IMG/VR virus record: IMGVR_UViG_3300037400_003880
From: a virus
Taxonomy: Duplodnaviria > Heunggongvirae > Uroviricota > Caudoviricetes
Direction: 5' to 3' (one strand)
DNA length: 64,000 nucleotides
This document shows, piece after piece, positions 42,601-59,264 of this stretch; the stretch's first letter is position 1, and each line of letters opens with the position of its first letter. The translations under genes and the position numbers were made by a program. The notes beneath the pieces were generated by a model. The model saw nothing but the letters and a program-made list of their open reading frames with translations. It did not search any database and was not told the DNA's origin.

Positions 42601-43503
42601 ATGAATAAGGCTTCTTTTTATATGGCAGTTGGTCTGCCGGGGTCTGGCAAGTCTTACCTGTTTGAATCTGTAATCAAGAAGTTGTCTCCTGACTGTGTAT
42701 ACGTATCTTCTGATGCAATTCGGGAGGAGGTATTCGGTGACGTAAACGATCAGGAGCATAATGAGCAGGTGTTTGAGCTGATGAAGCGCCGCACCCTTGA
42801 TTCTCTGAAGGCAGGAGTGTCGGTTTATTATGACGCAACCAATGTGTCCGCAAAGCATCGTATCGGTTTCCTTAAGGGACTTTCCCATATCAAGGACATC
42901 GCACGGGTATGTGTGTTGAACACTCCGCCCGTTGAGGTTGTAAAGTTCCGTAACGCCCATCGTGAGCGCAAGGTTCCGGAATACGTTATTGACAGAATGC
43001 TGAAGTCTTTCAATGTGCCTGACTATTCTGAGGGATGGGATGTAATTCTTCGTTATGGTTCTGATGAAGACCATAATGCAATTGAGGAAATTACTTGCTC
43101 TTCTGCAAAGCTGTCTCATGATAATCCTCATCACTCTGCAACTGTTGGAGTTCATATGTTTAATGCAGCAAACTATGCTGAAAAGGAATTGAAGGCAAAT
43201 TGCGAAGTCATCGAAGCAGCCTGCTATCATGATATTGGTAAGCCTATTTGTAAAGTATTTCAGGATGCAAAGGGCGAGCCGTCTGATGTAGCTCATTACT
43301 ACAACCATGAGAATGTCGGAGCATACCTATATCTTTCTCATGCAAAGAATGACGGGGTATCCCTGTATATTGCTAACCTGATTGCTCACCATATGGATTT
43401 TTTCAAGGGTGAAAAGTATGTTGAGAAGATTCATAATCGTTTTGGAGAGGGATTCTTTCGGGATCTCCAGCTCCTTCATAAGGCTGATGTAAATGCACAC
43501 TAA
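42601..43503 (+). CDS. polynucleotide-kinase-like P-loop kinase fused to an HD phosphohydrolase domain (RNA/tRNA repair candidate)
   Basis: Walker A GLPGSGKS and DxT-like YYDATN. C-terminal HD motifs H..HDIGK..H. Confidence 0.7.
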   Translation: MNKASFYMAVGLPGSGKSYLFESVIKKLSPDCVYVSSDAIREEVFGDVNDQEHNEQVFELMKRRTLDSLKAGVSVYYDATNVSAKHRIGFLKGLSHIKDIARVCVLNTPPVEVVKFRNAHRERKVPEYVIDRMLKSFNVPDYSEGWDVILRYGSDEDHNAIEEITCSSAKLSHDNPHHSATVGVHMFNAANYAEKELKANCEVIEAACYHDIGKPICKVFQDAKGEPSDVAHYYNHENVGAYLYLSHAKNDGVSLYIANLIAHHMDFFKGEKYVEKIHNRFGEGFFRDLQLLHKADVNAH

Positions 43504-44372: not shown

Positions 44373-45275
44373 ATGATTGGAAAATGGAATAACTTTTCAA
44401 AAGAAGAAATTGAAAATATTTATGCTTAGTCTAATAGTTTTATTGAAGTGGCTAAAAAGTTTGGGTATAAAAGTACAAATGGTTAGCTTAATAATAAATT
44501 AAGATTGCTAGCAAAAGACTTCGGCATTAATTATTTTCATTTAGAGCCAAATTAGAGATTAGATTTAGTTGTTGGAAATATATACGAAGGATTGCAGTAT
44601 ATAGAAGATGATAAGGATAAGAAACATTATGTGATATGTAAGTGTTTAAAATGTGGACAATAGACCAGCATTTATAAATACAATTTAGGAAAACAAAAGA
44701 CGTGCGGATGTAATAAAACTGAAAAGTTTTCAAAGACTATCCAGTTGGAGGGATGTAAAATTGGAAACTTTAAAGTAATCTCTTTAGATAAAGAACTATC
44801 TCTTTAGAAAAATAAAATTTACTGGAGTTGTAGATGCAACTTTTGTAATGGGATAAAAAGTATTGAGTCATATAGATTAAGAAATAATCCTCCCTATAGT
44901 TGCGGCTGTATCAGTCTAAATTCTAAAGGAGAATAGAAAATCGCAGATGTTTTAAGAGAAATGAATATTTCTTTCAAAAGAGAATATAGTTTTACAAATT
45001 TTTTTGACTTTATTGGACATCCTTTCCGCTTCGATTTTGCAATAGAGTTTCCTAAACTAATTTTAATTGAGTATCACGGAAAACAGCATTATGATAAAGA
45101 TTATGGCTGGGATGAATCTTATGAAGAAATAGTAAAAAGAGATAAAAAGAAATAGCAATATTGTAAAGAAAATGGCATTCCTCTTATAATTATTCCATAT
45201 ACAGATTATGATAAAATAGATACTAAGTATCTATTGAATATATTAAAAGGAGTTGATAAAAATGCCAAACGCTGA
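44373..45275 (+). CDS. Cys-repeat plus DUF559-like nuclease paralog 2 (about 300 aa, 8 TAG)
   Basis: GGAGGAAG ribosome-binding site. FRFDFAIEF..IEYHGKQHY is readable only with TAG as sense. Confidence 0.55.
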
Positions 45276-48115: not shown

Positions 48116-48190
48116 TGGGGTATCGCCAAGTGGTAAGGCACAGGACTTTGACTCCTGCATCCGTGGGTTCAAATCCCTCTACCCCAACCA
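48116..48190 (+). tRNA. tRNA-Gln (anticodon TTG), CCA encoded
   Basis: U1:A72 acceptor TGGGGTA/TACCCCA. D-arm GCCAAGTGGTAAGGC. Anticodon loop CTTTGAC. T-loop TTCAAAT. Closely resembles E. coli tRNA-Gln. Confidence 0.75.
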
Positions 48191-48193
48191 TAT

Positions 48194-48271
48194 GCCGGTG
48201 AAGCTTAAGTGGTATAAGCACTCCCCTTATAAGAGAGAGATAGATGGGTTCGAGTCCCTCGACCGGCACCA
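48194..48271 (+). tRNA. tRNA, identity uncertain (anticodon loop CTTATAA reads TAT; Ile2-like?), non-canonical T-stem
   Basis: Acceptor GCCGGTG/GACCGGC. D-arm GCTT..AAGC. T-loop TTCGAGT. CCA encoded. The anticodon stem has one mismatch. Confidence 0.45.
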
Positions 48272-48280
48272 ATAAATAAT

Positions 48281-48309
48281 TTGACTTTTTTATGGAAATA
48301 TGGTATAAT
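48281..48309 (+). promoter_or_regulatory. conserved promoter
   Basis: TTGACTTTTTT..ATGGTATAAT. Confidence 0.55.
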
Positions 48310-48330
48310 ATTTATAGAGAGGTGAGAGAA

Positions 48331-48510
48331 ATGACTGTAAAAGATTTAAGCGTAAAGATGGAAGCCTTAATTGAAAATGGTTAGGCTGACATTGAAGTCA
48401 TGGTATATGATATGCATGAGGGGTGGAAGCCTTATGTATATGAGGATACTTCTTTCCATGGCGGAAAGATTTATCTTGGACTTCCTGAAGTGAAAGTAAC
48501 AAGTGAATAA
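48331..48510 (+). CDS. small hypothetical protein (59 aa, 1 in-frame TAG)
   Basis: GAGGTGAGAG ribosome-binding site, then ATG at 48331. A TAG at codon 18 is read through to TAA 48508-10. Confidence 0.4.
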
Positions 48511-48511
48511 T

Positions 48512-48540
48512 TTGACTTTCTAAGAAAAATATGCTATAAT
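48512..48540 (+). promoter_or_regulatory. conserved promoter
   Basis: TTGACTTTCTA..ATGCTATAAT. Confidence 0.55.
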
Positions 48541-48546
48541 ATTTAT

Positions 48547-48614
48547 AGACAGGTCAGCAATTCAAATTTTAAGGACTATGCTTTTAACATAAAATTCTTA
48601 AACAATCTGTCTTG
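48547..48614 (+). ncRNA. Y RNA-like stem-closed element (short, stem-loop only)
   Basis: 5' AGACAGGTCAGCAA pairs with 3' CTGTCTTG. Family motif present. Confidence 0.4.
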
Positions 48615-48654
48615 AAATGGTTCGGCATCACTCCATTCAAAAGCGGTGTCAGAT

Positions 48655-48728
48655 GCGCCTATCGTCTAAAGGTAGGACACTACACTTTTAATGTAGGTAT
48701 TCGGGTTCGAGTCCCGGTGGGCGCACCA
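48655..48728 (+). tRNA. tRNA-Lys (TTT), CCA encoded
   Basis: Acceptor GCGCCTA/TGGGCGC. Anticodon stem CTACA/TGTAG with loop CTTTTAA. T-loop TTCGAGT. Confidence 0.75.
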
Positions 48729-48732
48729 GCAT

Positions 48733-48835
48733 ACGGCAGTTCAGCAATCCACTTTTTATTGCAGCCAAAAATTTTTGCAAGCGTATGGTTCGACTCCTGC
48801 GTTAATTCGGAGACGGTCTCCAAAGGTCTGTCGTG
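48733..48835 (+). ncRNA. Y RNA-like stem-closed element with T-loop-like GGTTCGACTCC and internal GGAGACGGTCTCC hairpin
   Basis: 5' ACGGCAGTTCAGCAATCC ... 3' CTGTCGTG. Family motif TCAGCAA present. Confidence 0.4.
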
Positions 48836-48841
48836 TATTAT

Positions 48842-48932
48842 GTCGAGATGGGTGAGTTGGCTTAAACCAGCGGTTTGCTAAACCGCCGACCGGCACAAAG
48901 CCGGTCCGAGGGTTCGAATCCCTCTCTCGACG
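48842..48932 (+). tRNA. tRNA-Ser (GCT), class II
   Basis: Acceptor GTCGAGA/TCTCGAC. Anticodon stem GCGGT/ACCGC with loop TTGCTAA. Long variable arm GACCGGCACAAAGCCGGTC. T-loop TTCGAAT. Confidence 0.7.
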
Positions 48933-48963
48933 CTTTCAAATTATTGAGAAAGAGGTGAGTCCA

Positions 48964-49194
48964 TTGGGCATAAAAGATTCCAACTGCTGGAAATATTTTC
49001 TGAGTAAAGCTCCATATGATGTTCTTGTAACAATTATGAAGAATACAGGAATTTGTCCAGTTGCCGCTTTGATGGGAGAATTTGACATTAACATATGTCT
49101 TCTTCATCATCCTCATAGAATATTTAAGACTCTTGAGGAAGAAGCTGTTTGTTATGAGTGCCTTCAAAAATGGCTAAACGAAAAAACTCAATGA
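48964..49194 (+). CDS. small Cys-rich protein inside the tRNA array (start uncertain: GTG 48955 or TTG 48964)
   Basis: Track ORF 48955-49194. AGAGGTGA ribosome-binding site. CxxC...CYEC. Confidence 0.35.
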   Translation: MGIKDSNCWKYFLSKAPYDVLVTIMKNTGICPVAALMGEFDINICLLHHPHRIFKTLEEEAVCYECLQKWLNEKTQ

Positions 49195-49195
49195 T

Positions 49196-49224
49196 TTGAC
49201 TTTTGAAGAAAAAAGTGATATAAT
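49196..49224 (+). promoter_or_regulatory. conserved promoter driving the suppressor tRNA pair
   Basis: TTGACTTTTGA..AGTGATATAAT. Confidence 0.55.
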
Positions 49225-49292
49225 TATTATAGTAAAGGCACAAACAGCAAGAATATCGTCCAACCTTAGAACGATACGTGTCTTGGCGAGAT

Positions 49293-49368
49293 TTCGGTTT
49301 CGCCAAGTGGGTAAGGCAGCGGGCTCTAACCCCGCCATTCGGGGGTTCAAATCCCTCAACCGAAACCA
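49293..49368 (+). tRNA. amber suppressor tRNA (anticodon CTA) on a tRNA-Gln-like scaffold, CCA encoded
   Basis: TTCGGTT TC GCCAAGTGGGTAAGGC A GCGGG CTCTAAC CCCGC CATTC GGGGGTTCAAATCCCTC AACCGAA A CCA. U1:A72. The D-arm and T-loop are nearly identical to the tRNA-Gln at 48116. Confidence 0.8.
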
Positions 49369-49439
49369 TTCTCCTTCGCCAAGCGGTAAGGCAGCGGGCT
49401 CTAACCCCGTCAGCCAAGGTTCGAATCCTTGAGGAGAAG
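49369..49439 (+). tRNA. second amber suppressor tRNA (anticodon CTA), directly abutting the first; no CCA
   Basis: TTCTCCT TC GCCAAGCGGTAAGGC A GCGGG CTCTAAC CCCGT .. CAAGGTTCGAATCCTTG AGGAGAA G. The anticodon stem and loop are the same as copy 1. Confidence 0.75.
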
Positions 49440-49443
49440 TGTA

Positions 49444-49530
49444 AAGACGGTTCAGCAAAACACAAATGGTTAAAGAAAAATTCTGCAAAAATTTTTTGAA
49501 ACGGTTCAAATCCGTAAATTTCCCGTCTTG
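49444..49530 (+). ncRNA. Y RNA-like element with closing stem AAGACGG/CCGTCTT and internal T-arm-like ACGGTTCAAATCCGT
   Basis: Family 5' motif GACGGTTCAGCAAAAC. 7 bp terminal stem. Confidence 0.45.
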
Positions 49531-49535
49531 TTAAT

Positions 49536-49564
49536 TTGACTTTTTTCTTAGAGTATGATATAAT
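49536..49564 (+). promoter_or_regulatory. conserved promoter
   Basis: TTGACTTTTTT..ATGATATAAT. Confidence 0.55.
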
Positions 49565-49613
49565 AAATATGTACTTAAAAGTACGGAGCGAAATTCTCCT
49601 TAAACTACAAAAT

Positions 49614-49687
49614 GCGGCTATGGTGTAGTGGTAACATTTCTGCCTTCCAAGCAGACGTGGCGGGTTCGAGTCCCGTTAGCCGCTCCA
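49614..49687 (+). tRNA. tRNA-Gly (TCC), CCA encoded
   Basis: Acceptor GCGGCTA/TAGCCGC. Anticodon stem TCTGC/GCAGA with loop CTTCCAA. T-loop TTCGAGT. Confidence 0.75.
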
Positions 49688-49730
49688 GCTGTTGGTAAAC
49701 AGGTTGGCTCAATTGCCCGAAGCTTCCAAA

Positions 49731-49971
49731 AGACAGGTCAGCAATCCTTATAGAAATGTAATATTTAGAATAGGATTGAAAACTAACGGTATTAGTTTTG
49801 CTCGGGACGACTACTATGAAAGGAATGAGGTAAAACTCTCAACCGAGCTTATAGCGGCTGCCGGCTTTCGTGGCAGGAACCTTCGCCAGTCGTTACTACA
49901 CAGCGACATTAAAGAAGTGTGAGTATTGATGCAGCCTCCCTTTACGGGATTTAGATTTAGTACCTGTCTTG
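49731..49971 (+). ncRNA. Y RNA-like element, long form (about 241 nt)
   Basis: 5' AGACAGGTCAGCAATCC ... 3' TACCTGTCTTG. Highly structured interior. Confidence 0.4.
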
Positions 49972-50460
49972 AAAATTGAATGGTCGGCATTCGCTTGTGC
50001 CTTCCCCATAAGTTAAATTCAAGCCTCTACTGTGCTTATATCCCGTCTATTATGTTCGTCCGGAAGTGCGGCACATTAAATAACGCGGCGAAAAGAACAT
50101 TAGAACTCTCGTATATAGACTCAGGATAAGTGGAGCGAGACTAAATAAGTACCCGTTTGGCACGAGTTGTGCTAAATCCGAATCGTTCCTTATACTGCCA
50201 TATGAGGAGCGTCTGTGGCAGCAGTAATGAGACAGAAAGCTCTCAGAGTTGTACAGCTCAAAGCTTTCTCGCAATCCGCCGGTGTGAATGGGCGGTACCT
50301 TGTGAGTTAGTAGATGGACATAACTCTCCGTCTGGTTTGGCGTGAACGGACTGCTCAAAGGGTTCAACTCCCTTTCAATAGGATGTGCCTATTGCTACGG
50401 TTTAGGAGTTGGCACCAAGTACAAGCCTCCACGCGGCGGTGCTGGATTTGAACTAATTGT
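49972..50460 (+). ncRNA. unclassified structured non-coding region (about 490 nt) with T-loop-like AAGGGTTCAACTCCCTT and several GTCTG/CAGAC long-range complements
   Basis: No credible ORF; the track ORFs here overlap on both strands and are low-complexity. Lies between a Y-like element and a conserved promoter. No tmRNA, RNase P or group I core motifs were recognised. Confidence 0.3.
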
Positions 50461-50472
50461 ACAAAAGATTAT

Positions 50473-50501
50473 TTGACTTTTTATAAAAATTATGATATAA
50501 T
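50473..50501 (+). promoter_or_regulatory. conserved promoter
   Basis: TTGACTTTTTA..ATGATATAAT. Confidence 0.55.
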
Positions 50502-50522
50502 ATTTATAGAAAGTAAAGAGAA

Positions 50523-50598
50523 CGCGGGTTAGAGCAGTTGGTAGCTCGTCAGGTTCATTACCTGAAGGTCAGGGGTTCGAGTCCCTTACCCGCAACCA
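50523..50598 (+). tRNA. tRNA-Met/fMet-like (CAT), C1·A72 mismatch, CCA encoded
   Basis: Acceptor CGCGGGT/ACCCGCA. D-arm GAGC..GCTC. Anticodon stem TCAGG/CCTGA with loop TTCATTA. Confidence 0.6.
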
Positions 50599-50601
50599 AA
50601 T

Positions 50602-50677
50602 CGCCCCATCGTCTAAATGGTAAGGACGCGTCCCTTTCAAGGAGGTAATGCGAGTTCGATTCTCGCTGGGGTGACCA
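50602..50677 (+). tRNA. tRNA-Glu (TTC), CCA encoded
   Basis: Glu-type D-arm GTCTAAATGGTAAGGAC. Anticodon loop CTTTCAA. T-arm GCGAGTTCGATTCTCGC. Confidence 0.65.
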
Positions 50678-50685
50678 GCACGTTA

Positions 50686-50762
50686 CGACAAATCAGCAAA
50701 ACACTTCTTTCTTCAGAAATTAGAGAGATAAAGTCGTGCATTATCTTTAATAGTTTGTCGTG
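50686..50762 (+). ncRNA. Y RNA-like short element
   Basis: 5' CGACAAATCAGCAAAACAC ... 3' TTTGTCGTG. Confidence 0.4.
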
Positions 50763-50769
50763 AAAAATG

Positions 50770-50838
50770 GCGCGGTAGTGTAAAGGTAGCATAGTAGAGT
50801 CATTATCTACTGATTCAAGTTCGAGTCTTGACTGCGCA
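50770..50838 (+). tRNA. short tRNA with CAT anticodon (Met or Ile-lysidine type), reduced D-arm
   Basis: Acceptor GCGCGGT/ACTGCGC. Anticodon stem GTAGA/TCTAC with loop GTCATTA. T-arm CAAGTTCGAGTCTTG. Confidence 0.45.
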
Positions 50839-50842
50839 ATAA

Positions 50843-50966
50843 AAGATGTGTCAGCAAAACACTTAGTTATGGCATTTTAAGCCTCAGAATGTTGGTTCGA
50901 GTCCAACCCTCTCTTTGGAGAGGTAGCTTAATTGGCAGAGCGGAGAAAAACGAAAAACACATCTTG
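50843..50966 (+). ncRNA. Y RNA-like element with permuted tRNA-like module
   Basis: 9 bp closing stem AAGATGTGT/ACACATCTT. Interior: T-arm GTTGGTTCGAGTCCAAC, acceptor 3' strand CCTCTCT, TT, acceptor 5' strand GGAGAGG, TA, D-arm GCTTAATTGGCAGAGC. Confidence 0.5.
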
Positions 50967-51190
50967 TTTTAATGCCCGAGTACCCCAATCGGCAGAGGGA
51001 GCGGACTTTGATGTATTCTATCACAAAAGTGATACTACTGAAAAGTAGAGAGTGCCCCAAGAGAAATCTTGGAAGTAGAAGATGGCTAAAACGGCGAAGG
51101 CGAATACAGAACGCCGTGCAAGGATTTTAGGCAGACGGAAAGTTTTAGATGGATTTTTGCGTGATACCACTTATAAGTGAGGTGATAGAA

Positions 51191-51697
51191 ATGCAGAAGT
51201 ACACTAAAGAGTGGTTAGAAGAGCTTTGTGCAAACAGCTTTTCTTACGCAGAGGTTTTAAGAAAAGCCGGTCGTAAGCAAGGCGGTGGAACACAAGCGAC
51301 TCTAAAAAAGAAGATTGAAGAATTTAATATTGATGTCTCTCATTTTACGGGGCAAGGGTGGAATGGTCATTCTAATACCGTTGTTGATGTAAATAGAGAG
51401 AAATATTCAATAGAAGAAATCTTCATTAAGAACAGCCCAGTTACACAAAAAGTTATGAGAGGATATGTTGAAAGGCACAATCTTCTTGAGTACAAATGTG
51501 TTAATTGTGGTTGTGATGGAAATTGGCAAGGCGGCACAATCTCATTAGAGATTGACCATATTGATGGAGATAATTCTAATAATGAATTATCAAATCTCCG
51601 TTATTTATGTCCCAATTGTCACGCTCTTACTGAAACTTATCGAGGAAAAAACAAAGCCCTGAAATCTATGTGTAGAGACTGTACACCATCAGCCTAA
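51191..51697 (+). CDS. HNH homing endonuclease
   Basis: GGTGATAGAA ribosome-binding site, then ATG at 51191. HNH motif EIDHIDGDNSNNELSNLRYLCPNCHALTE. A 33-codon ORF upstream (51082-51183) lies in a different frame. Confidence 0.75.
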   Translation: MQKYTKEWLEELCANSFSYAEVLRKAGRKQGGGTQATLKKKIEEFNIDVSHFTGQGWNGHSNTVVDVNREKYSIEEIFIKNSPVTQKVMRGYVERHNLLEYKCVNCGCDGNWQGGTISLEIDHIDGDNSNNELSNLRYLCPNCHALTETYRGKNKALKSMCRDCTPSA

Positions 51698-51713
51698 ATC
51701 GAAAGATATGGTT

Positions 51714-51878
51714 AAGACACAGTCCAGACTACAACACAGCAATGTGGCTATGGTGACATAGTGTAGTACGAAAATCCGTATAGTGTGGGTTCGAATCCCA
51801 TTTCGGGCACCATTCTTATTGGGCTTATATGGCTTGGCTGTCACCATATGGCAGCGGCTCAATAGGAAACCAAGCCTT
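51714..51878 (+). ncRNA. Y RNA-like/tRNA-like structured element
   Basis: AAGACACAG...ACACAGCAATG motif. Internal stem CTATGGTGACA/TGTCACCATAG. T-arm-like GTGGGTTCGAATCCCAT. Confidence 0.35.
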
Positions 51879-51950
51879 AAGACGGTTCAGCAACTCTATA
51901 TAATAGAACTGTGTATTTGTGAACGCTGTTAATTTATATTGTCCGTCTTG
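51879..51950 (+). ncRNA. Y RNA-like short element
   Basis: 5' AAGACGGTTCAGCAACTC ... 3' GTCCGTCTTG. Confidence 0.45.
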
Positions 51951-51957
51951 TTTAAAT

Positions 51958-52032
51958 CGAGGACGTGGTGTAATTGGTAACACACCACATTTGGGATGTG
52001 GGGTAGCGGTTCGAGTCCGACGTCTTCGACCA
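51958..52032 (+). tRNA. tRNA-Pro (TGG), CCA encoded; weak T-stem
   Basis: Anticodon stem CCACA/TGTGG with loop TTTGGGA. T-loop TTCGAGT. Acceptor (C)GAGGAC/GTCTTCG with G·U pairs. Confidence 0.55.
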
Positions 52033-52129
52033 GCCCATAAGGGCAATCTTGATTTTTTCATCATTATTCATAATAATACCTCCAGAGTTATTATGAAAGT
52101 GTCGCATTATTGCGGAATGCGACACAAAT

Positions 52130-52206
52130 CGGGAATTAGCCCAATTGGCAGAGGCATACGTTTAAGGTGCGTATTAGTGAGGGTTCGAGTCCCTTGTTCC
52201 CGACCA
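52130..52206 (+). tRNA. class-I tRNA with Leu-type anticodon (loop TTTAAGG/TTAAGGT; TAA or AAG), A73, CCA encoded
   Basis: Acceptor CGGGAAT/GTTCCCG. D-arm GCCCAATTGGCAGAGGC. Anticodon stem (A)TACGT/GCGTA(T). T-arm GAGGGTTCGAGTCCCTT. Preceded by a 10 bp hairpin GTGTCGCATT..AATGCGACAC. Confidence 0.5.
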
Positions 52207-52393
52207 TCAGGTAAGCAGAGCTACCCGTCATTCGGTGACAAAGCTGCTCGGAGCGTTAACACGGATTTTGGATTAGTAAACTACTACCGGCGAGAGGTCG
52301 CTCCTCTCGATATGTAGCTTGCGGCAAACGCTCCGTTAATAAATAAGAAGGCGAAGTAACTAGTCCACCATTAAAAGAAAGGAGAGAATAGTC

Positions 52394-52897
52394 GTGGATA
52401 TGAAAAAGTTTCATCGTGGTAATGGAGACATTGTAACTCATGATGAAATGGTCAAGATTGCAGCTGATTATATCAGTGCTGATCCATCTCAGGAGTATGA
52501 AATTACTGTAGGGACTGATAGCCAAAACCATTCACAAACAAAAATGGTTGAAGTTATTGCTCTTCACAGAATTGGACACGGCGGCATCTTCTTCTATAGG
52601 GTTGATTATGTTCGTAAGATTAAGTCACTAAAGGAGAAGATTGTAGAAGAAACCTCGCGTTCTCTTGAGAATGCATCAGGGTTACTTGACGATGTTCAAC
52701 TTCAGTTGCTTGAAGAAGGCATTGATATTGATGACTTGAATATTCATTTCATTATTCATTGTGATATTGGTCATGAAGGAAAAACTCAGGCTTTAATTAA
52801 GGAAATTGTAAGTTGGGTTCATTCCGCAGGTTATGAATGTCAAATCAAGCCAGACAGCTATGCGGCTTCTGGTATTGCAAATAAGATTTCTAAATGA
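52394..52897 (+). CDS. hypothetical protein inside the tRNA array (H..GHGG / DIGHEG motifs; RNase-H-like fold?)
   Basis: AAAGGAGAG ribosome-binding site. Track ORF. Preceded by a structured leader with 7-8 bp helices. Confidence 0.5.
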   Translation: MDMKKFHRGNGDIVTHDEMVKIAADYISADPSQEYEITVGTDSQNHSQTKMVEVIALHRIGHGGIFFYRVDYVRKIKSLKEKIVEETSRSLENASGLLDDVQLQLLEEGIDIDDLNIHFIIHCDIGHEGKTQALIKEIVSWVHSAGYECQIKPDSYAASGIANKISK

Positions 52898-52916
52898 GGT
52901 GTTAATCACCTCAGAT

Positions 52917-52994
52917 GCCGTGGTAGTCCAACTGGCAGGAGACGTTTGCCTTAGGAGCAAAACAGTATGGGTTCGAATCCCTTCTACGGCACCA
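52917..52994 (+). tRNA. class-I tRNA with anticodon TAG (Leu CUA/CUG codons), A73, CCA encoded
   Basis: Acceptor GCCGTGG/CTACGGC. Anticodon stem TTTGC/GCAAA with loop CTTAGGA. T-loop TTCGAAT. Confidence 0.55.
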
Positions 52995-52996
52995 TT

Positions 52997-53090
52997 AAGA
53001 CAGCGCAGCAAATTTGAATAGCTCCATTTATATACACATAAAATGTATTTTAACAAAAGTGTCTCTGCTATAATGACACGAGCTGTCTTG
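52997..53090 (+). ncRNA. Y RNA-like element
   Basis: 5' AAGACAGCGCAGCAAATT ... 3' GAGCTGTCTTG. Confidence 0.4.
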
Positions 53091-53110
53091 TAATTTAATT
53101 CAAACTTATT

Positions 53111-53230
53111 AAGACTCTCCAGCAATCTGAGAAGGATTTCTTTCCAGTGTAGCCAAGTGGGTTAAGGCAGCGGCATCAAAGCCGTGATTCTCCGGTTCGA
53201 ATCCGGACTCCGGACAAAAAAAGAGTCTTG
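53111..53230 (+). ncRNA. Y RNA-like element enclosing a pseudo-tRNA (anticodon CAA, degenerate acceptor)
   Basis: 8 bp closing stem AAGACTCT/AGAGTCTT. The interior TCCAGTG TA GCCAAGTGGGTTAAGGC A GCGGC ATCAAAG GCCGT .. TCCGGTTCGAATCCGGA CTCCGGA has the Gln/Sup-like D-arm. Confidence 0.45.
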
Positions 53231-53236
53231 AGTTAT

Positions 53237-53309
53237 GGTGTAAGTGGTGAAATGGCTATCACGGCGGTTTGTGGCACCGCAGTTAAGAGTTCGATTCTCT
53301 TCTTATGCC
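53237..53309 (+). tRNA. tRNA-His (GTG) with encoded G-1:C73
   Basis: 8 bp acceptor GGTGTAAG/CTTATGCC. D-stem GTGA/TCAC. Anticodon stem GCGGT/ACCGC with loop TTGTGGC. T-arm AAGAGTTCGATTCTCTT. Confidence 0.7.
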
Positions 53310-53330
53310 CTTTATTTATCAATTAAAATA

Positions 53331-53359
53331 TTGACTTTTTGAGAAAAATATGGTATAAT
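53331..53359 (+). promoter_or_regulatory. conserved promoter
   Basis: TTGACTTTTTG..ATGGTATAAT. Confidence 0.55.
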
Positions 53360-53382
53360 ATTTATAGAAAGTGAGGGAAAAT

Positions 53383-53622
53383 ATGAAACAATTTATTATT
53401 TTAGAGGTATGCAATGAGGATTATTACATTTTCGATACTGTTAATGAAGCTATTCTCTATGCAATAGGGAAGGTTTGTAAATGGGTAAAAGATGAGGTGT
53501 TGGGAATGACAAAAGAAAGCGCAGGAGAGATTATCCTTGAAATGATGGATAGTAAGACTGACCATTCTTTTTATGTCGATGACGTTTTTTACTGTTATCC
53601 CGCACAATATATTAAGGAATAA
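53383..53622 (+). CDS. hypothetical protein
   Basis: AGTGAGGGAAAA ribosome-binding site, then ATG at 53383. Confidence 0.45.
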   Translation: MKQFIILEVCNEDYYIFDTVNEAILYAIGKVCKWVKDEVLGMTKESAGEIILEMMDSKTDHSFYVDDVFYCYPAQYIKE

Positions 53623-53639
53623 GTAAAGGAGAGAGTTAA

Positions 53640-53768
53640 ATGAGTAAAGAGCTGAGAATCCAGATGATGGAAAATCGAATTGTCTTGCTTATGTCTCGCG
53701 GCGAGACTATGAATGCAAGAATTGTAGCGAAGCTAAAGCGACAGCTTCGCAAGCTCAAGGGCGAGTAA
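53640..53768 (+). CDS. small basic protein (42 aa)
   Basis: AAGGAGAGAG ribosome-binding site. MSKELRIQMMENR... Below the track cutoff. Confidence 0.35.
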   Translation: MSKELRIQMMENRIVLLMSRGETMNARIVAKLKRQLRKLKGE

Positions 53769-53780
53769 TCGCCCACTTAT

Positions 53781-53854
53781 GGGGATGTGGTGCAAGTGGC
53801 AGACGCGGCTGTCTCAAAAACAGTTTTTTGTGGGTTCGAATCCCACCATCCCCA
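53781..53854 (+). tRNA. class-I tRNA with anticodon CAA (Leu UUG codon), A73
   Basis: Acceptor GGGGATG/CATCCCC. Anticodon stem GCTGT/ACAGT with loop CTCAAAA. T-arm GTGGGTTCGAATCCCAC. Confidence 0.55.
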
Positions 53855-53942
53855 CTGGCGCGCAGGTTTGATGCAATGCGACATATACAGAAATCCGTGT
53901 ACTATAGAGTATTCCTGCACAATCTATAGCGGTATTTAATTT

Positions 53943-54089
53943 AAGACACGCACAGCAAAGTTTTTTATAAATGGACAGTAAATCCGTTGGGGAAGTCCCT
54001 TCGTAGGTGCAAATCCTATCCTCGCCCACCAATATGGGTGAGTAGCCAAGTAGACAAAGGCGGCGGAACCATATGTAAAAAGTGTCTTG
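53943..54089 (+). ncRNA. Y RNA-like element with permuted tRNA-like module
   Basis: Closing stem AAGACAC/GTGTCTT. Interior: T-arm-like GTAGGTGCAAATCCTAT, acceptor 3' strand CCTCGCC plus CACCA, ATAT, acceptor 5' strand GGGTGAG, TA, D-arm GCCAAGTAGACAAAGGC. Confidence 0.45.
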
Positions 54090-54093
54090 AGAT

Positions 54094-54179
54094 GCGGAGA
54101 TGCCCGAGTGGTTGATGAGGACGGTCTGCAAAACCGTTGGCTTGCGCCCGCGTGGGTTCGAATCCCACTCTCCGCTCCA
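54094..54179 (+). tRNA. class-II (long variable arm) tRNA with anticodon GCA (Cys codons) and U73, CCA encoded
   Basis: Acceptor GCGGAGA/TCTCCGC. Tyr/Ser-like D-arm CCCGAGTGGTTGATGAGG. Anticodon stem ACGGT/ACCGT with loop CTGCAAA. 14 nt variable arm TGGCTTGCGCCCGC. T-arm GTGGGTTCGAATCCCAC. Confidence 0.55.
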
Positions 54180-54182
54180 AAT

Positions 54183-54256
54183 GCAGAATTAGTTTAATGG
54201 TAGAATTGGTGCTTCCCATGCACTTGACGCGGGTTCGATTCCCGTATTCTGCTCCA
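54183..54256 (+). tRNA. tRNA-Gly (CCC), CCA encoded
   Basis: Acceptor GCAGAAT/ATTCTGC. Anticodon loop TTCCCAT. T-arm GCGGGTTCGATTCCCGT. Confidence 0.7.
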
Positions 54257-54258
54257 GT

Positions 54259-54385
54259 AAGGTAGGTCAGCAAGAAGAACTAAAATTTTGTTCCAACTCT
54301 TATGTTGATGGTTCGAGTCCATCCTCACTCGCAAGTGTGAGTAGTTCAACTGGCAGAACAAAGGGTAAAAATTTAACCTATCTTG
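54259..54385 (+). ncRNA. Y RNA-like element with permuted tRNA-like module
   Basis: Closing stem GGTAGGT/ACCTATC with TCAGCAAG. Interior: T-arm GATGGTTCGAGTCCATC, acceptor 3' strand CTCACTC, loop GCAAGT, acceptor 5' strand GTGAGTA, D-arm GTTCAACTGGCAGAAC. Confidence 0.5.
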
Positions 54386-54417
54386 ATTATATCTGAGTTT
54401 AATTCTCTTCGGAGTAT

Positions 54418-54508
54418 CAAAGGCACAAAACAGCGGCGTACTTCTAAGTTCGATTCTTAACTCCTCCACCAATATGGGGGAGTAGCCCTTGGAGGGCTAT
54501 GTGTCTTG
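54418..54508 (+). ncRNA. Y RNA-like/tandem tRNA-like fragment element
   Basis: T-arm-like CTAAGTTCGATTCTTAA. CTCCTCC ACCA ATAT GGGGGAG TA GCCC. Ends ATGTGTCTTG. Confidence 0.35.
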
Positions 54509-54512
54509 ATTT

Positions 54513-54585
54513 GTCTCATTAGTTCAACAGGATAAAACAGTTTCCTCCTAAGAAACAGTTACAGGTTCGAGTCCTGTATGGGGCA
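54513..54585 (+). tRNA. tRNA-Arg (CCT)
   Basis: Acceptor GTCTCAT/ATGGGGC with two G·U pairs. Anticodon stem GTTTC/GAAAC with loop CTCCTAA. T-arm ACAGGTTCGAGTCCTGT. Confidence 0.55.
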
Positions 54586-54642
54586 CTGGGCGTTACTGCC
54601 CAAGTTATTTTCGACGTAAGTCTTGCGGCATGACTATAAACT

Positions 54643-54750
54643 GCCGTTGATGATGCGGAGGTGCGCAAGTGGTCATAAGCGCATAGCCTTGAAAGCTATT
54701 GTGTCAGCTTAGTATCTGACCCGTGGGTTCGAATCCCACTCTCCGCGCCA
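54643..54750 (+). tRNA. tRNA-Ser (TGA), class II, CCA encoded
   Basis: Acceptor GCGGAGG/TCTCCGC. Anticodon stem ATAGC/GCTAT with loop CTTGAAA. 21 nt variable arm. T-arm GTGGGTTCGAATCCCAC. Confidence 0.7.
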
Positions 54751-54894
54751 GACATGCTTTTGTAATTTCCATGTAATGAACAAGAAATTATTACCTTAGT
54801 GGTGGCTGAGCTATCTTTCAGTAAGTTTTAATAAATAATAAAATTAAATTTAAAATTTATTGAAGGGTAGCTTGGCTTAATACAGGTTATTTAT

Positions 54895-54923
54895 TTGACT
54901 TTCTTAGGAAAGTATGCTATAAT
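54895..54923 (+). promoter_or_regulatory. conserved promoter
   Basis: TTGACTTTCTT..ATGCTATAAT. Confidence 0.55.
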
Positions 54924-54989
54924 ATTATTATAGTGAGAAGATAAAACAGCAAACAAAAAGATTTATCTTGTGAAAAGGAGAAATGTGTA

Positions 54990-56459
54990 ATGAGTAATTT
55001 TGCAAACGCTTTTGGTAGAATGGCAGACATGACTATGACCGAGAATGGTGGACGCGCTTTCAGTACTACCGGTTCAGCTTTGCTTGACCTGTTCGCTAAT
55101 ATCGGTGGCATGAGAAATCGAGACACTTCTGATGTTGTTTCTGCATGGCAGGCAGCTCGGAAGGAAGATAAGGAGCTTGCGGATAATCTGATCCTCTATG
55201 CCCGTGATATTCGTAACACTGGTCTCGGTGAGCGTAAGATTGGTCGTGCCCTCCTGAAGGCTCTCGGTGATGCTGATCCTCAGAAGGTAATCCGTAACTT
55301 TGAAACCATTGTTGCGGCAGGTCGTTGGGATGACTTGTTCATCTTTGTGGGTAACCCTGCAATTGAGAACAAGATGTGGGATTATGTTGAAGAGCAGTTC
55401 CGTGCTGATGTAAAGGGTGTAAAGCTTAACCAGCCTATCTCTTTGCTCGGTAAGTGGATGCCTTCCATTAACACCAGCTCTCAGGAGACTCGTAAGCTCG
55501 CACGTCGTGCCTGCGCGCACTTGGGTCTGACTGAGCGTACTTATCGTAAGAGCCTTAGCGCGCTTCGTAAGCATATCAACATTGTTGAGCGTCTTATGAG
55601 CGCCGGCGAGTGGGATAAGATTGACTTCGAGTCTGTACCTTCTGTAGCTATGTCTCGTTATATCAATACTTATAACAAGCGTTGTCAGGAGCGTTTTGCT
55701 GAATACAAGGCTTCCCTCGTAAAGGGTGAAGCTAAGGTTAATGCAGCAACTTTGTATCCTTATGACATTGTTATGAAGGCATTGAATAGCGGATACTACG
55801 GGAAGATGACTCTTGATGCTGTTGACGAAGCACAATGGAAGGCTCTGCCTAACTATGTGTCTGGTGAGAATGAGGTCGTTGTAATGGCGGACGTGTCTGG
55901 TTCTATGAGCTGTGACATGAATCGTCCTATGGCAACTTCTATCGGTCTTGCCACCTATTTCGCACAGAGGAACAAGGGTGCATATCACAATATGTATCTT
56001 ACCTTTACCTCTCAGCCTGCTTTCATTCATCTCAAGGATGAGTGGAGTTTGGCAGACTGCCTTAACTATGTGAAGAGTCATGGTGTAGGTTATAGCACTA
56101 ATCTGGATGCGGCTTTCGCTGCAATCTATGAGGTTGCTGTTCGCACCAATGAAGCTCCAAAGGCACTGGTTGTAATCTCTGACATGGAGATTGATAGCTG
56201 GTACTCTGGTAACTTCTGCGACTCTATCGCAAGTAAGTGGGAGAGAAAGTATGCAGCCGTTGGCTTGAAGGCTCCTAAGCTTATCCTTTGGAACGTAGAA
56301 TCTCGTGGTGGACGTGTGCTCGCACAGCAGTCTGATCGTGTAGGTTTCGTTTCTGGATATGGCGTTGGTCCTTTCGCAAACTTGACCTCTCTTATCGACA
56401 AGAGTGCTTACGAGGCAATGAAGGAAATTCTTTCTAAGCCTGCATTCCAGTGGAAGTAA
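54990..56459 (+). CDS. Ro60/TROVE-like protein with C-terminal vWA domain (Rsr-like, DUF2828-type; tentative)
   Basis: AAAAGGAGAAA ribosome-binding site. An N-terminal alpha-helical region of about 290 aa is followed by a vWA MIDAS motif VVVMADVSGSMS and LVVISDMEID. Lies directly downstream of the Y RNA-like/tRNA array. Confidence 0.55.
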   Translation: MSNFANAFGRMADMTMTENGGRAFSTTGSALLDLFANIGGMRNRDTSDVVSAWQAARKEDKELADNLILYARDIRNTGLGERKIGRALLKALGDADPQKVIRNFETIVAAGRWDDLFIFVGNPAIENKMWDYVEEQFRADVKGVKLNQPISLLGKWMPSINTSSQETRKLARRACAHLGLTERTYRKSLSALRKHINIVERLMSAGEWDKIDFESVPSVAMSRYINTYNKRCQERFAEYKASLVKGEAKVNAATLYPYDIVMKALNSGYYGKMTLDAVDEAQWKALPNYVSGENEVVVMADVSGSMSCDMNRPMATSIGLATYFAQRNKGAYHNMYLTFTSQPAFIHLKDEWSLADCLNYVKSHGVGYSTNLDAAFAAIYEVAVRTNEAPKALVVISDMEIDSWYSGNFCDSIASKWERKYAAVGLKAPKLILWNVESRGGRVLAQQSDRVGFVSGYGVGPFANLTSLIDKSAYEAMKEILSKPAFQWK

Positions 56460-56462
56460 TGT

Positions 56463-56486
56463 AAGGGCGGCTCGTCCGCCTTTATA
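56463..56486 (+). terminator. terminator-like hairpin GGGCGGCTCGTCCGCCTTT
   Basis: GGCGG/CCGCC stem followed by TTTAT. Confidence 0.5.
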
Positions 56487-56492
56487 TAAATA

Positions 56493-56722
56493 TGGCGGTT
56501 CAGCAACTTACTTTATGAGAAATTGGAGTTAAATTTATTTTAACAGGCTTTTGGCTGCCGAAGTCAAATGTGACCCATCGAGGACATGGGCAAAAATCCT
56601 AAAAGGTGCCGTCATGATATACGATTCTTCCAGCAATAGTGATGCTATGTTTAGGAAAATTTTACAATTATGCCTTGATTGAAGAGCAGAATCGTGCGGC
56701 ATTATAGTTTCTATAGTGCCGC
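56493..56722 (+). ncRNA. Y RNA-like element, long and divergent
   Basis: 5' TGGCGGTTCAGCAACTT ... 3' GTGCCGCTTTA. No ORF. Confidence 0.3.
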
Positions 56723-56731
56723 TTTATTTAT

Positions 56732-56760
56732 TTGACTTTTTTATAAAAATATGATATAAT
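56732..56760 (+). promoter_or_regulatory. conserved promoter
   Basis: TTGACTTTTTT..ATGATATAAT. Confidence 0.55.
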
Positions 56761-56787
56761 ATAAGTGTAGAAAGGAGAGATGGACTT

Positions 56788-56907
56788 ATGCATGAACTGC
56801 TTTCTTTACTTATGTTGTTAGTTCTTGTGCCGGCGGCAATAATCTTTATCGAGATTATTATTGAGCGTATTGAAGATGCTAAAGAAGGGGAGGATGAAGA
56901 TATGTGA
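56788..56907 (+). CDS. small membrane peptide (39 aa)
   Basis: AAAGGAGAG ribosome-binding site, then ATG at 56788. Hydrophobic with an acidic tail. Confidence 0.3.
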   Translation: MHELLSLLMLLVLVPAAIIFIEIIIERIEDAKEGEDEDM

Positions 56908-58586
56908 GTGTCGCTATTAGAATAACATTATCAAATGGAGAAGAAGCGTGGCTAAGAACAGAAGAAGTTGAAGTGGAAGAAATCCCTGACGCATTTGGTC
57001 AGCCAATGTCTTTAGATGTTCAATTTTTAGCTTAGACAGGTTCTTGGATAGAAAATCTTCTTAAAATCAATGAGTCGGTAAAAGTTTCTTAGCTTTTGTT
57101 AATAGTTGATAATGATAAGAAGATACAGATTGATTTTAGACGCTATGCATTAGGAGTTATGATGTGTCATTCAAGCAATTTGAATGGTACATCTGATATA
57201 TCCATTATTGGAGCTGGCGTTGCAACTGAATTTAAGGAAGGAGAGATTGTCTGTGTGAGTAAGAAGTTTTCTACAAAAATTGTAAGTGTAATATTCCCAG
57301 ATGAAAGGGGCAGATACACAGGGAAAACCTATAACTATTTTCTGCATGAGGAGCTACCACTCCCGAATCTTTCTGACAGGATTCAAATTAAATCAATCAA
57401 AGGTTTTGGGGATGTTGTGCCGTAGAAGCCCAGTTATAATGACAGAAGTGTTCTTGTAGTTGGCGCCTTTAATGTTACAGCAGATACTGTAGAAGAGTAT
57501 GCTGATAAAATTTTAACCTATGGCGATTGTCTGAAAACAATCTATAGCTATGAAATAACAAGTTCCTTAGTTTCAGATGTTGTACATCAGGAAAAGGAAG
57601 CTACTCTTTCTATTCAAGTAGACGATCATGAGAAACTTTGGCAAGACCTCAATAATGTAGTGGCTAATGCGCCTTATGGTTTCAGATTATCTGATATTAA
57701 TAATGAGCAAGTAAAGCTTGACTGTGAAGTTCTCCGCCCATTCTCTCTTTATACAAAGAGTGATTCGGGTGACTGGGTTCTTCGAGCTGAGCTTAAGCCA
57801 TATGGAAAGGAAAACGAAGTGAGAAACAAATATGTTGATGAATGGGATAGCCTTGTAAGTGCAGGAGCAATTCCGACTTACAACACAGTTGAAGAAATGG
57901 ATATTCCGAAGGAAGAAATGGTATATTTTGAGAAGAAAAAGGAGAGAAAATCAATGAAGAATATTTTTGGTAACATTATGAAGAACGTAAAGTTTGGTCA
58001 GCTCAATACTGACAAGGTCGCATATTCTATGCAGGGTATGGCTTTCAAGTCCAGTGACGGTGATTATCTCGTATACAAGAAGGATCAGCCGGCGGTTAAC
58101 GTAAATGAGTTTGTCATTGAGATGCCGCTGTTTGTGATGCCGGTCCCGCTGAAGGACCTTTAGGTTGGTGATATTATTTGCAGGGGTGAAGATTTTGTTC
58201 TTGTAGATAGTATCGGTGAGACTTATATTACCGCAATCAACACTGACAAGAGTGAGATTGTAACAATTGTTCCACAGGTAAATATGTTCGGCTTCTCCTT
58301 CTATAGTAAGGTAGTAGCTCCGACTAATCTGTTCGGCGAGGCAACTCAGGATAATCCGTTTGGTAATATTCTGCCGCTGCTAATGATGGATAATGAAGAT
58401 AACGATTCTTCTGCATTTGGTATGATGATGCTCATGAGCCAGATGAATGGCGGTAAGGGTATGAATATGGATTTCACTAAAATGGCTCCGTTTTTTCTGC
58501 TTGGCAATCAAAATGGAAAGGATGACACCTTCAAGATGATGGCTCTTATGTCTATGATGAATAGCGGCTCTGAAAAGAAGGAGTAA
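56904..58586 (+). CDS. hypothetical protein (about 560 aa, 5 in-frame TAG)
   Basis: GGGGAGG ribosome-binding site, then GTG at 56904. One frame joins track ORFs 57096-57425, 57660-58163 and 58284-58586 across TAGs. Met-rich C-terminus. Confidence 0.5.
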
Positions 58587-58591
58587 TTTTA

Positions 58592-58936
58592 ATGTTAGGT
58601 AACGTTCTTTTCTATGGAGGTATCGGGATCGCCATTATTGGCGGTCTCGGTATCATACGTTTTGATGGCTCTATCAAACGAGTTATTATTTGCGGAATTA
58701 TGATTATAGCAGGTCTTGCCTGCCTTGCAGTTGGGCAAGGAAAGCGTAATACAGCTCCTGTAAAGTATGAAATTGTTGAAGTGCAGTCTTTGAATAATAA
58801 CGATACGCAATATCGAGTTACACTAAAGGCTGGCGGAAATTCAACAATTTTGTACGTTGACGATAAGAAAGTAAAGGATTTTGTGGAGGGCGGCACAATT
58901 GAGCTTACAGCTCCACAGTTAAAGGAGTATCAGTAA
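58592..58936 (+). CDS. membrane protein
   Basis: Track ORF with two transmembrane helices. Confidence 0.5.
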   Translation: MLGNVLFYGGIGIAIIGGLGIIRFDGSIKRVIICGIMIIAGLACLAVGQGKRNTAPVKYEIVEVQSLNNNDTQYRVTLKAGGNSTILYVDDKKVKDFVEGGTIELTAPQLKEYQ

Positions 58937-59229
58937 TGACAGCAAACGAAGAAATGGGACTTGGAATTTTTGCAATTGTCTTGGTAATAATCCTTATAGG
59001 AGTAGTAGTTGGACTTATTGCTTATCAGAATTCGACTGGAGAGGATATGGTTGATTCCCATTTGAAAGATTATTCCTCTTTTACAGTCAATGGGGCTGAC
59101 TTTAAGACCGAGGATGTAGAAGGATATGACTATTTACCAAACGGTCACGAGAATGACGCAATCGTTTTCAATATGGAAAATGGCGATGAAGTTCACGTCC
59201 TTATTGATATGATTACTTGGCACGAATAA
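58936..59229 (+). CDS. membrane protein
   Basis: Track ORF with one transmembrane helix. Confidence 0.5.
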   Translation: MTANEEMGLGIFAIVLVIILIGVVVGLIAYQNSTGEDMVDSHLKDYSSFTVNGADFKTEDVEGYDYLPNGHENDAIVFNMENGDEVHVLIDMITWHE

Positions 59230-59235
59230 TATGTT

Positions 59236-59264
59236 AAAGCCAGCTCACAAGGGCTGGCTTTTTA
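59236..59264 (+). terminator. rho-independent terminator AAAGCCAGC..GCTGGCTTTTT
   Basis: 9 bp stem followed by a T-run, immediately before a conserved promoter. Confidence 0.7.

Follow-up and report, generated by a model that had tools for sequence, protein, structure and literature searches.

The window considered here is a stretch of DNA of 64,000 nucleotides (nt) from a virus of the class Caudoviricetes (Duplodnaviria; Heunggongvirae; Uroviricota; IMG/VR record IMGVR_UViG_3300037400_003880), with a G+C content of 36% and genes that lie essentially all on the + strand. The element under study is a pair of directly abutting tRNA genes with the amber-reading anticodon CUA, which stands with its own promoter at positions 49196-49439. 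The pair forms part of a longer array, in which ARAGORN called 19 tRNAs at 48116-54750, all on the + strand and two of them with a CTA anticodon. The features of the locus are as follows.

48116-48190, + strand: resident tRNA-Gln(UUG), called by ARAGORN; Rfam 65.2 bits; A73; the closest relative of copy 1.
49196-49224, + strand: sigma-70-type promoter of the suppressor unit, an exact TTGACT-N17-TATAAT with a TG-extended -10; function predicted from sequence.
49235-49284, + strand: leader hairpin AAGGCAC...ACAGCAA...GTGTCTT, between the promoter and copy 1; ViennaRNA fold.
49293-49368, + strand: suppressor tRNA copy 1, 76 nt, CUA, Gln-type, U1:A72, A73, CCA encoded; ARAGORN and Rfam.
49369-49439, + strand: suppressor tRNA copy 2, 71 nt, CUA, Gln-type core, U1:A72, G73, no encoded CCA; ARAGORN and Rfam.
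49444-49529, + strand: trailer AAGACGG-UUCAGCAA...(T-arm-like ACGGUUCAAAUCCGU)...CCGUCUU; fold and motif family.

An earlier note on this DNA had described tandem, abutting amber-suppressor tRNAs, and this description was borne out. ARAGORN placed the two genes at the coordinates given, with zero spacer, and the Rfam tRNA model (RF00005) scored copy 1 at 61.1 bits and copy 2 at 59.7 bits against a gathering score of 29, both in the upper part of the Rfam range of the array. Minimum-energy folds (ViennaRNA) gave a cloverleaf with the 7-nt loop C-U-C-U-A-A-C in both copies, which places CUA in register at positions 34-36; U33, G18G19 and the T-loop TTC of an elongator tRNA accompany this 7-nt anticodon loop in both. 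Copy 1 reads UUCGGUU-UC-GCC-AAGUGGGUAA-GGC-A-GCGGG-CUCUAAC-CCCGC-CAUUC-GGGGG-UUCAAAU-CCCUC-AACCGAA-A-CCA and copy 2 reads UUCUCCU-UC-GCC-AAGCGGUAA-GGC-A-GCGGG-CUCUAAC-CCCGU-CAGC-CAAGG-UUCGAAU-CCUUG-AGGAGAA-G. They have in common the anticodon arm GCGGG-CTCTAAC-CCCG(C/T) and the D-arm GCCAAG(T/C)GG(G)TAAGGC, while the acceptor and T arms of copy 2 have diverged, as the earlier note had also recorded. The discriminator G of copy 2 is followed by UGU, so that no CCA is encoded; in this it is not unusual, since CCA is absent from 6 of the 19 ARAGORN tRNAs of the window.

What the earlier note overlooked is that the phage itself is recoded at TAG, and it is this that gives the pair its function. 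Within 1-16.7 kilobases (kb), open reading frames (ORFs) of at least 100 codons covered 2730 of 5566 codons under code 11, 5166 with TAG read as sense and 2900 with TGA read as sense. The structural and lysis block (1322-16682, + strand) holds 69 in-frame TAG codons, and the called + strand genes of the window hold about 130. Individual TAG-containing genes of this block, its two endolysin genes and the TAG-rich genes of nuclease type are listed here.

1322-3217, + strand: tail fibre gene, 5 TAG; PHROG match.
3232-4038, + strand: endolysin gene; PHROG match.
4841-6061, + strand: endolysin gene; PHROG match.
6508-9615, + strand: ORF of 1035 codons, 17 TAG, zero TAA or TGA; gene at 6511-9615.
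9557-11224, + strand: ORF, 14 TAG; gene at 9572-11224.
11218-14031, + strand: ORF, 11 TAG.
14310-16682, + strand: ORF, 9 TAG.
26397-27491: GIY-YIG gene, of the TAG-rich nuclease type.
34162-34893, 44373-45275 and 60970-61884: DUF2726-like paralogues with LTGQKFG repeats, of the TAG-rich nuclease type.

The tail-fibre, lysis and large structural-type genes would thus be unreadable without decoding of UAG, and annotation under the standard code would break up the structural and lysis genes of the phage. The nuclease-type genes (GIY-YIG and the three DUF2726-like genes), with 30 TAG in 1590 codons, are as TAG-rich as the structural genes; they are probably mobile, and lie among genes that are free of TAG. 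No release factor, aminoacyl-tRNA synthetase or Gat genes were found among the Pfam-scanned ORFs of the window. In 20 genes, 44% of the in-frame TAG codons were followed by A and 23% by G, the corresponding figures for CAA/CAG being 28% and 39%; for the excess of A, a rough two-proportion estimate gave an uncorrected p of about 0.005. UAG-A is the better-suppressed context, and the bias fits this. Counting the gain in ORF length with TAG as sense over 71 related loci did not separate loci with CUA tRNAs from those without, because these loci are mostly TAG-poor early regions.

The lineage of the pair was then traced among 509 distinct tRNAs from the window and related phages, with the anticodon masked. 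The nearest neighbour of copy 1 was the tRNA-Gln(UUG) of the window (79% identity), and that of copy 2 was copy 1 (71%), copy 2 and tRNA-Gln(UUG) being 61% identical. The D-arm and anticodon stem, searched as the module GCCAAGYGG(N)TAAGGCAGCGGG-loop-CCCG with the anticodon left free and one genome taken per bacterial species, gave among the matches listed at least 138 in at least 120 bacterial loci, with the anticodons TTG (137) and CTG (1); all listed matches thus carry Gln anticodons, which marks the module as a tRNA-Gln signature. The acceptor ends are TTC...GAA with U1:A72 in both copies. U1:A72 is used by GlnRS and by GatCAB, and in this phage group U1 occurs in 20 of 22 distinct CUA tRNAs and in 23 of 28 tRNA-Gln, G1:C72 being the commonest pair in most other isotypes.

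Such a descent could be recent, and the earlier note had seen in copy 1 a supE-like duplicate that departs from the resident tRNA-Gln(UUG) by one change in the anticodon. The 79% identity to this tRNA, the highest found for copy 1, and the nearly identical D-arm and T-arm are what a recent duplication would leave. The claim of a single change did not hold, however. Copy 1 differs from tRNA-Gln(UUG) at 17 of 76 positions, 2 in the anticodon (UUG to CUA requires two changes) and 15 outside it; its anticodon stem is wholly replaced, and its first three acceptor pairs are U-A, U-A, C-G where tRNA-Gln(UUG) has U-A, G-C, G-C. Copy 1 being 79% identical to this tRNA and copy 2 61%, neither is the parent tRNA altered in its anticodon alone. 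The acceptor (TTCTCC...) and T arm of copy 2 are, moreover, closer to the second CUA tRNA of a related locus, L011, than to any tRNA-Gln, and a slot with the same promoter and leader is present in relatives about 64% identical in protein, which indicates that the suppressor cassette is old. A recent duplication with minimal anticodon change is therefore unlikely.

These relatives are 79 IMG/VR loci (numbered here with the prefix L) that were fetched with the DUF2828 protein, whose gene lies 5.6 kb downstream of the pair. Megablast of 48-52 kb against GenBank phages returned 55-59 nt tRNA-Gln matches and nothing more, and in tblastn the helicase and DUF2828 proteins brought up no relative above 41% identity, the best protein matches being 33-41%. 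One contig from Logan, L009, matches 48132-64000 at 100% identity and represents the same genome, so that it is not independent. The closest relatives have 63-65% identity in the DUF2828 protein and an order of the tRNA array in common with the window. L011, at 63% identity in DUF2828, has a CUA-CUA pair at 4610-4685 and 4689-4765 with a 3-nt spacer and Glu-like D-arms; L010 has one CUA tRNA; and in L003 the promoter and leader stem known from the window pair are followed by a single CUA tRNA of 94 nt, the variable arm of which is long. No CUA tRNA was found within the fetched locus of L021. In both L003 and L011 the CUA tRNA is preceded by this leader stem, which shows a compensatory change (CAC/GTG versus CGC/GCG). 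That differing tRNAs follow one and the same promoter and leader argues for a slot that is conserved while the tRNA body varies.

Long-variable-arm CUA tRNAs of 85-94 nt were seen at L003 3600-3693, L016 7837-7930, L033 5938-6030, L072 3447-3537 and L031 4873-4957. By eye, U1:A72 is present in four of the five, L072 having apparently U1·G72, and their nearest-neighbour identities were 0.6-0.68 to Leu, Ser or Gln tRNAs. An IMG/VR pattern scan for a Gln-like D-arm with a CUA loop returned two unrelated phages, neither with a tandem pair.

Since copy 2 has diverged arms, no encoded CCA and no more than 61% identity with the resident tRNA-Gln, it might be a decaying duplicate, with copy 1 alone at work. 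Decay is hard to reconcile with its Rfam score of 59.7 bits and with the pattern of its differences from copy 1. Three acceptor and three T-stem pairs have changed, all six on both sides so that they remain paired, and the D and anticodon arms differ at just 3 positions, one of them an indel. Among 15 class-I CUA tRNAs of related phages, compensatory changes were found in 18 of 20 cloverleaf pairs, with the loop CTCTAA invariant. The absence of CCA is, as mentioned above, common in the array, and a CUA-CUA pair is kept in a second phage, L011. We thus consider a decaying copy 2 quite improbable. Across the window and 80-odd related loci, 76 pairs of tRNAs lie no more than 5 nt apart, and two of these have the same anticodon, both CUA-CUA (the window and L011). 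Doubling of the same anticodon was therefore seen solely for CUA, which argues for selection for doubling of the suppressor specifically, and dosage is the likely reason for it.

Which amino acid is placed at UAG was assessed by several routes. Over the TAG columns of gene 34162-34893 (7 TAG), aligned with 119 database homologues, Q stood in 291 of some 800 cells, its background frequency being 4.5%. Its two conserved TAG columns had Q in 87 of 119 and in 109 of 117 homologues, counts that are partly circular, as the gene caller assumed TAG=Q for some relatives: the database product P0001 of a recoded relative (P0001/L005-L008) does not translate to the query with table 11. Two other lines are free of this circularity. 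At the invariant column of the nuclease motif [IVLF][ED][YFV]xGx(Q)H[YFW], phage loci readable at the DNA level had CAA/CAG 8 times and TAG 9 times, and nothing else. In the structural and lysis genes, TAG (69), CAA (64) and CAG (19) together make up 3.0% of codons, while in nine TAG-free genes CAA (35) and CAG (68) make up 2.8%; the CAG share of CAA plus CAG falls from 66% in the TAG-free genes to 23% in the structural and lysis genes, a drop that matches the gain in TAG and argues that TAG replaced CAG. Paralogues within the window also pair TAG with Q (WVISxVL/WVISQVL and LTGxKF/LTGQVF). Comparison of the GH25 lysin and ThyX with PDB entries found the TAG columns unconserved or unaligned, and an all-against-all comparison of ORFs from the window and the loci gave noisy raw tallies with too few conserved TAG columns.

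Insertion of another residue by one or both copies, for example Glu (GatCAB not converting) or Lys, would leave UAG ambiguous. Such an assignment could draw on the acceptor, which begins U1-U2-C3 where bacterial tRNA-Gln has U1-G2-G3, and on K and E, which are also common opposite TAG in loose alignments. These residues, however, stand at surface-type positions that vary and at which Q, K and E often replace one another, whereas Q dominates the conserved columns, the invariant motif column holds Q codons or TAG exclusively, and the CAG deficit matches the TAG excess. A residue other than Gln is accordingly quite unlikely, and glutamine at UAG is a well supported reading. Taken together, the Gln-only module, U1:A72 and the occurrence of TAG at Gln positions point to Gln-type amber suppressors that would serve the recoded genes of the phage. 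Both are genuine amber-suppressor tRNAs of tRNA-Gln type, and Gln at UAG, as the earlier note had expected, is the best-supported reading.

The transcription of the unit was examined from its flanks. One promoter, strong and of host type by its sequence, stands upstream of the pair, and neither a promoter nor a terminator lies between the copies; no intrinsic terminator was found on the + strand between copy 2 and the next promoter at 49536, nor around the suppressor unit. The consensus TTGACT-N17-TATAAT has 23 exact copies in the window, from 6133 to 63947 and on the + strand only, most with TG at -15/-14 and a T-rich start of the spacer. They occur at about one per kb across 37-64 kb and are sparse in the structural block. 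Fourteen genes start within 70 nt of such a promoter, and 11 of them are TAG-free; the promoter at 6133 heads an operon whose second gene carries 17 TAG. The promoter at 49196 had been called early; its exact consensus was confirmed, but the timing could not be established from the DNA, the same type also heading this operon. An exact-protein look-up for the small ORF upstream of the 49196 promoter gave no record.

The trailer was considered as a theta ribozyme and rejected, since an HDV-like (hepatitis delta virus-like) fold was found at none of the tRNA 3' ends of the window. The descriptor used was built on the published domain layout (PMC10879173), was run on both strands and recovered the published ribozyme as control. 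It called for P1-P2-P3-L3 with a CC/GG P1.1, the catalytic C in J4/2 and G1 within 5 nt of a tRNA 3' end. Strict matches occurred just at 23921, 40905 and 54625, none of them at a tRNA 3' end, and Rfam found no ribozyme across 47-56 kb.

Very probably, therefore, the window comes from a large uncultured phage in which UAG is read as Gln (code 15) in many genes, with the abutting CUA tRNAs as its decoding device. The host looks Gram-positive, judging from the 36% G+C, the extended -10 promoters, GAGG-type ribosome sites, and the CW_7, amidase and GH25 lysins. In the mechanism that we envisage, the pair would be transcribed as one dimer, and an RNase P cut at the 5' end of copy 2 would also free copy 1 with its encoded CCA end. 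The 3' end of copy 2 would undergo RNase Z-type trimming and then receive CCA from the host enzyme. Loading with Gln would be carried out by the host, either by GlnRS directly or by a non-discriminating GluRS followed by GatCAB, both of which read U1:A72. The two copies would raise the dose of suppressor, outcompeting release factor 1 (RF1), and the TAG-rich genes would be efficiently translated once suppressor had built up, as in the code-switch model of other recoded phages.

Several points weigh against this interpretation. The whole case is drawn from sequence. The acceptor set of E. coli GlnRS comprises G2:C71, G3:C70 and G73; of the GlnRS identity elements that the earlier note had invoked, U1:A72 is indeed present in both copies, but both have U2:A71 and C3:G70 in place of the E. 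coli pairs, and copy 1 has A73, G73 being found in copy 2. The charging route could be either of those named. Part of the Q counts in database homologues could be assumed rather than observed, and a codon comparison with L005 (83-93% identical) was consistent but thin, the few informative changes being TAG to CAG 3 times, to CAA once and to other codons 7 times, some of these in off-frame ORFs. The timing model is a prediction only, and promoters of this one type precede TAG-free as well as TAG-rich genes.

Two further explanations of the pair fare worse. The main target of the suppressors might be the host, whether they read through its UAG stops or serve as spares against anticodon nucleases, and the RNA-repair genes of the window (a PNK-like AAA_33+HD gene, an RNA ligase and the Ro-like protein beside the tRNA array) would suit such a role; about 130 in-frame TAG codons, of which the structural and lysis block accounts for 69, would nevertheless make the suppressor indispensable to translation of the phage, so that a mainly host-directed function is very unlikely, and effects on the host may be an addition to phage decoding, not an alternative to it. 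That the genes encode tRNA-Pyl is extremely improbable, the CUA anticodon being its sole support and all that the rejected tRNA-Pyl label of ARAGORN reflects. In both copies the anticodon stem has 5 base pairs (bp), the variable loop 4-5 nt and the gap between acceptor and D stems 2 nt, and G18G19 and a TTC T-loop are present, where tRNA-Pyl has 6 bp, 3 nt and 1 base, respectively, and a small D-loop that lacks G18G19. The core of both copies is Gln-specific, TAG stands at Gln columns, and the scanned ORFs of the window yielded no Pyl-pathway domains.

The leader and trailer that flank the pair are members of a wider motif family, 5' AAGRC-N4-5-CAGCAA ... NNGTCTT(G) 3', the ends of which pair. 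Over 1.59 Mb of DUF2828-centred phage loci, the 5' motif had 111 occurrences on the + strand and none on the - strand; it is densest in the last 500 nt upstream of the gene for DUF2828, and it is often found within 5 nt of a tRNA end. Its positions, and those of a related core, are given below.

AAGRC-N4-5-CAGCAA: window 49235, 49444, 49730, 51879, 52997, 53111 and 53943; also loci L003-L087.
GKTCAGCAA: window 48552, 48739, 54265 and 56498.

In its core, G(G/U)UCAGCAA, the family is similar to the motif through which Y RNAs contact Ro60 (PMC4201824), and DUF2828 is named 'Ro-like RNA binding protein' in some phage records. The Rfam model YrlA gave sub-threshold matches of 35.9 bits at 50863-50973 and 33.1 bits at 54299-54363 (gathering score 69), both inside the tRNA array, in which the tRNA-like domain (T-arm and D-arm) aligns well and the Ro-binding stem poorly. 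No mention of DUF2828 was met in the phage literature searched. The AAGRC...GTCTT elements may thus be a candidate for an undescribed phage family of Y-RNA-like elements. A Ro-like protein and Y-like RNAs might further control maturation or stability of the suppressors, and hence the moment of the code switch, a proposal in which we place little confidence; in a weaker variant, the copies would mature by different routes (encoded versus added CCA), with a two-step rise in suppression. If this were true, the suppressor dimer would not be free-standing, being embedded between two Y-like RNA elements.

Two other genes of the array are of note. A tRNA-like gene at 53143-53215, called 'tRNA-???' by ARAGORN and scored at 41.4 bits by Rfam, combines U1:A72 and a D-arm of Gln type with two mismatches in the acceptor and an anticodon loop of 6 nt; it sits inside an AAGACUC...GAGUCUU stem (53111-53229), the architecture of a Y RNA with a tRNA-like domain. 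An extra tRNA at 48194-48268, found by Rfam only (35.9 bits) and missed by ARAGORN, begins 3 nt after tRNA-Gln(UUG), and its loop CUUAUAA gives the anticodon UAU, of the AUA-reading tRNA-Ile type. Several protein genes in or near the array together look like an RNA repair or quality-control set.

54990-56459: DUF2828 gene (DUF2828 and DUF7788), TAG-free.
42601-43503: PNK-like gene (AAA_33 and HD).
59979-60914: RNA ligase gene, TAG-free.
52394-52897: RNaseH_like gene (PF04308).

The remaining TAG-free genes that were annotated are the following.

16728-17819: GH113 gene.
18392-19477: helicase gene.
24823-26400: ATPase-like gene interrupted by an intein (Hint and LAGLIDADG).
31530-32474: Band 7 protein gene.
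35411-37120: gene for an adhesin-like protein.

TAG-to-Gln 'code 15' phages with a suppressor tRNA(CUA) have been described among crAss-like, Lak, Agate and other phages (10.1101/2021.08.26.457843), with proteomic proof of the recoding (PMC9523058), and in the RF1 competition or code-switch model the level of suppressor controls TAG-rich late genes (10.1101/2021.08.26.457843). The window resembles these phages in its phage-encoded CUA tRNA, in the concentration of TAG within genes for structure and lysis, in the alignment of TAG with Gln, in the lack of a dedicated synthetase and in a host presumably of standard code. It differs in its lineage, which is uncultured and has a tRNA-Gln fragment as its best DNA match among GenBank phages, and in its suppressor, a zero-spacer homodimer with an orthodox tRNA-Gln D-arm. 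Two or three tRNA-Sup-CTA have been reported in phAss-1 and the 'Phassvirus' group (PMC10607447; OQ749652, 'Caudoviricetes code 15 clade'). Like the window, phAss-1 is a large gut phage with a presumed Bacillota host, a long tRNA array and no synthetase, and TAG is found in about 40 of its ORFs. In contrast, it has no kinship with the window at the DNA level beyond a 55-nt tRNA-Gln match, and the Sup-CTA of phAss-1 that was examined is single, lies between tRNA-Glu and tRNA-Cys and has the D-arm GCTCAATAGGTTAGAGC, unlike those of the window, with U1:A72 as in the window. Theta ribozymes follow many CCA-less suppressor tRNAs in recoded gut phages (PMC10879173). The window likewise has a CCA-less suppressor tRNA with a structured RNA directly 3' of it, but without an HDV-like fold.

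Suppressors in TAG-to-Gln phages, even in 2-3 copies, have thus already been described, and the pair is a clear but ordinary code 15 case. The window provides an internally consistent instance of TAG-to-Gln recoding in a phage lineage without a cultured or annotated relative, and three modest additions, which will cause specialists little surprise. The suppressor may be a zero-spacer homodimer. A conserved slot may hold varied tRNA bodies, nearly all with U1:A72, and this retention points to the Gln-charging machinery of the host as the constraint. Finally, since the same promoter type is found on TAG-free and TAG-rich genes, translation rather than transcription may set the timing.

Two classical systems also invite comparison. 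In the E. coli amber suppressor supE (glnV), a tRNA-Gln backbone carries a CUA anticodon through the single-base change CUG to CUA and inserts Gln at UAG. The window pair has the same combination of a tRNA-Gln backbone with CUA; in contrast to supE, the backbone of copy 1 departs from its resident tRNA-Gln(UUG) outside the anticodon as well, at the 15 positions noted above. The dimeric tRNA precursors of phage T4 (Gln-Leu and Pro-Ser, for example) join tRNAs for different amino acids with a spacing of 0 to a few nt, some without CCA, and are matured by host RNase P and the CCA-adding enzyme. The window pair, the processing of which is predicted, is alike in consisting of two abutting phage tRNAs in one transcription unit, one of them without an encoded CCA, and differs from the T4 dimers in that both halves carry the same anticodon, one that reads a stop codon.

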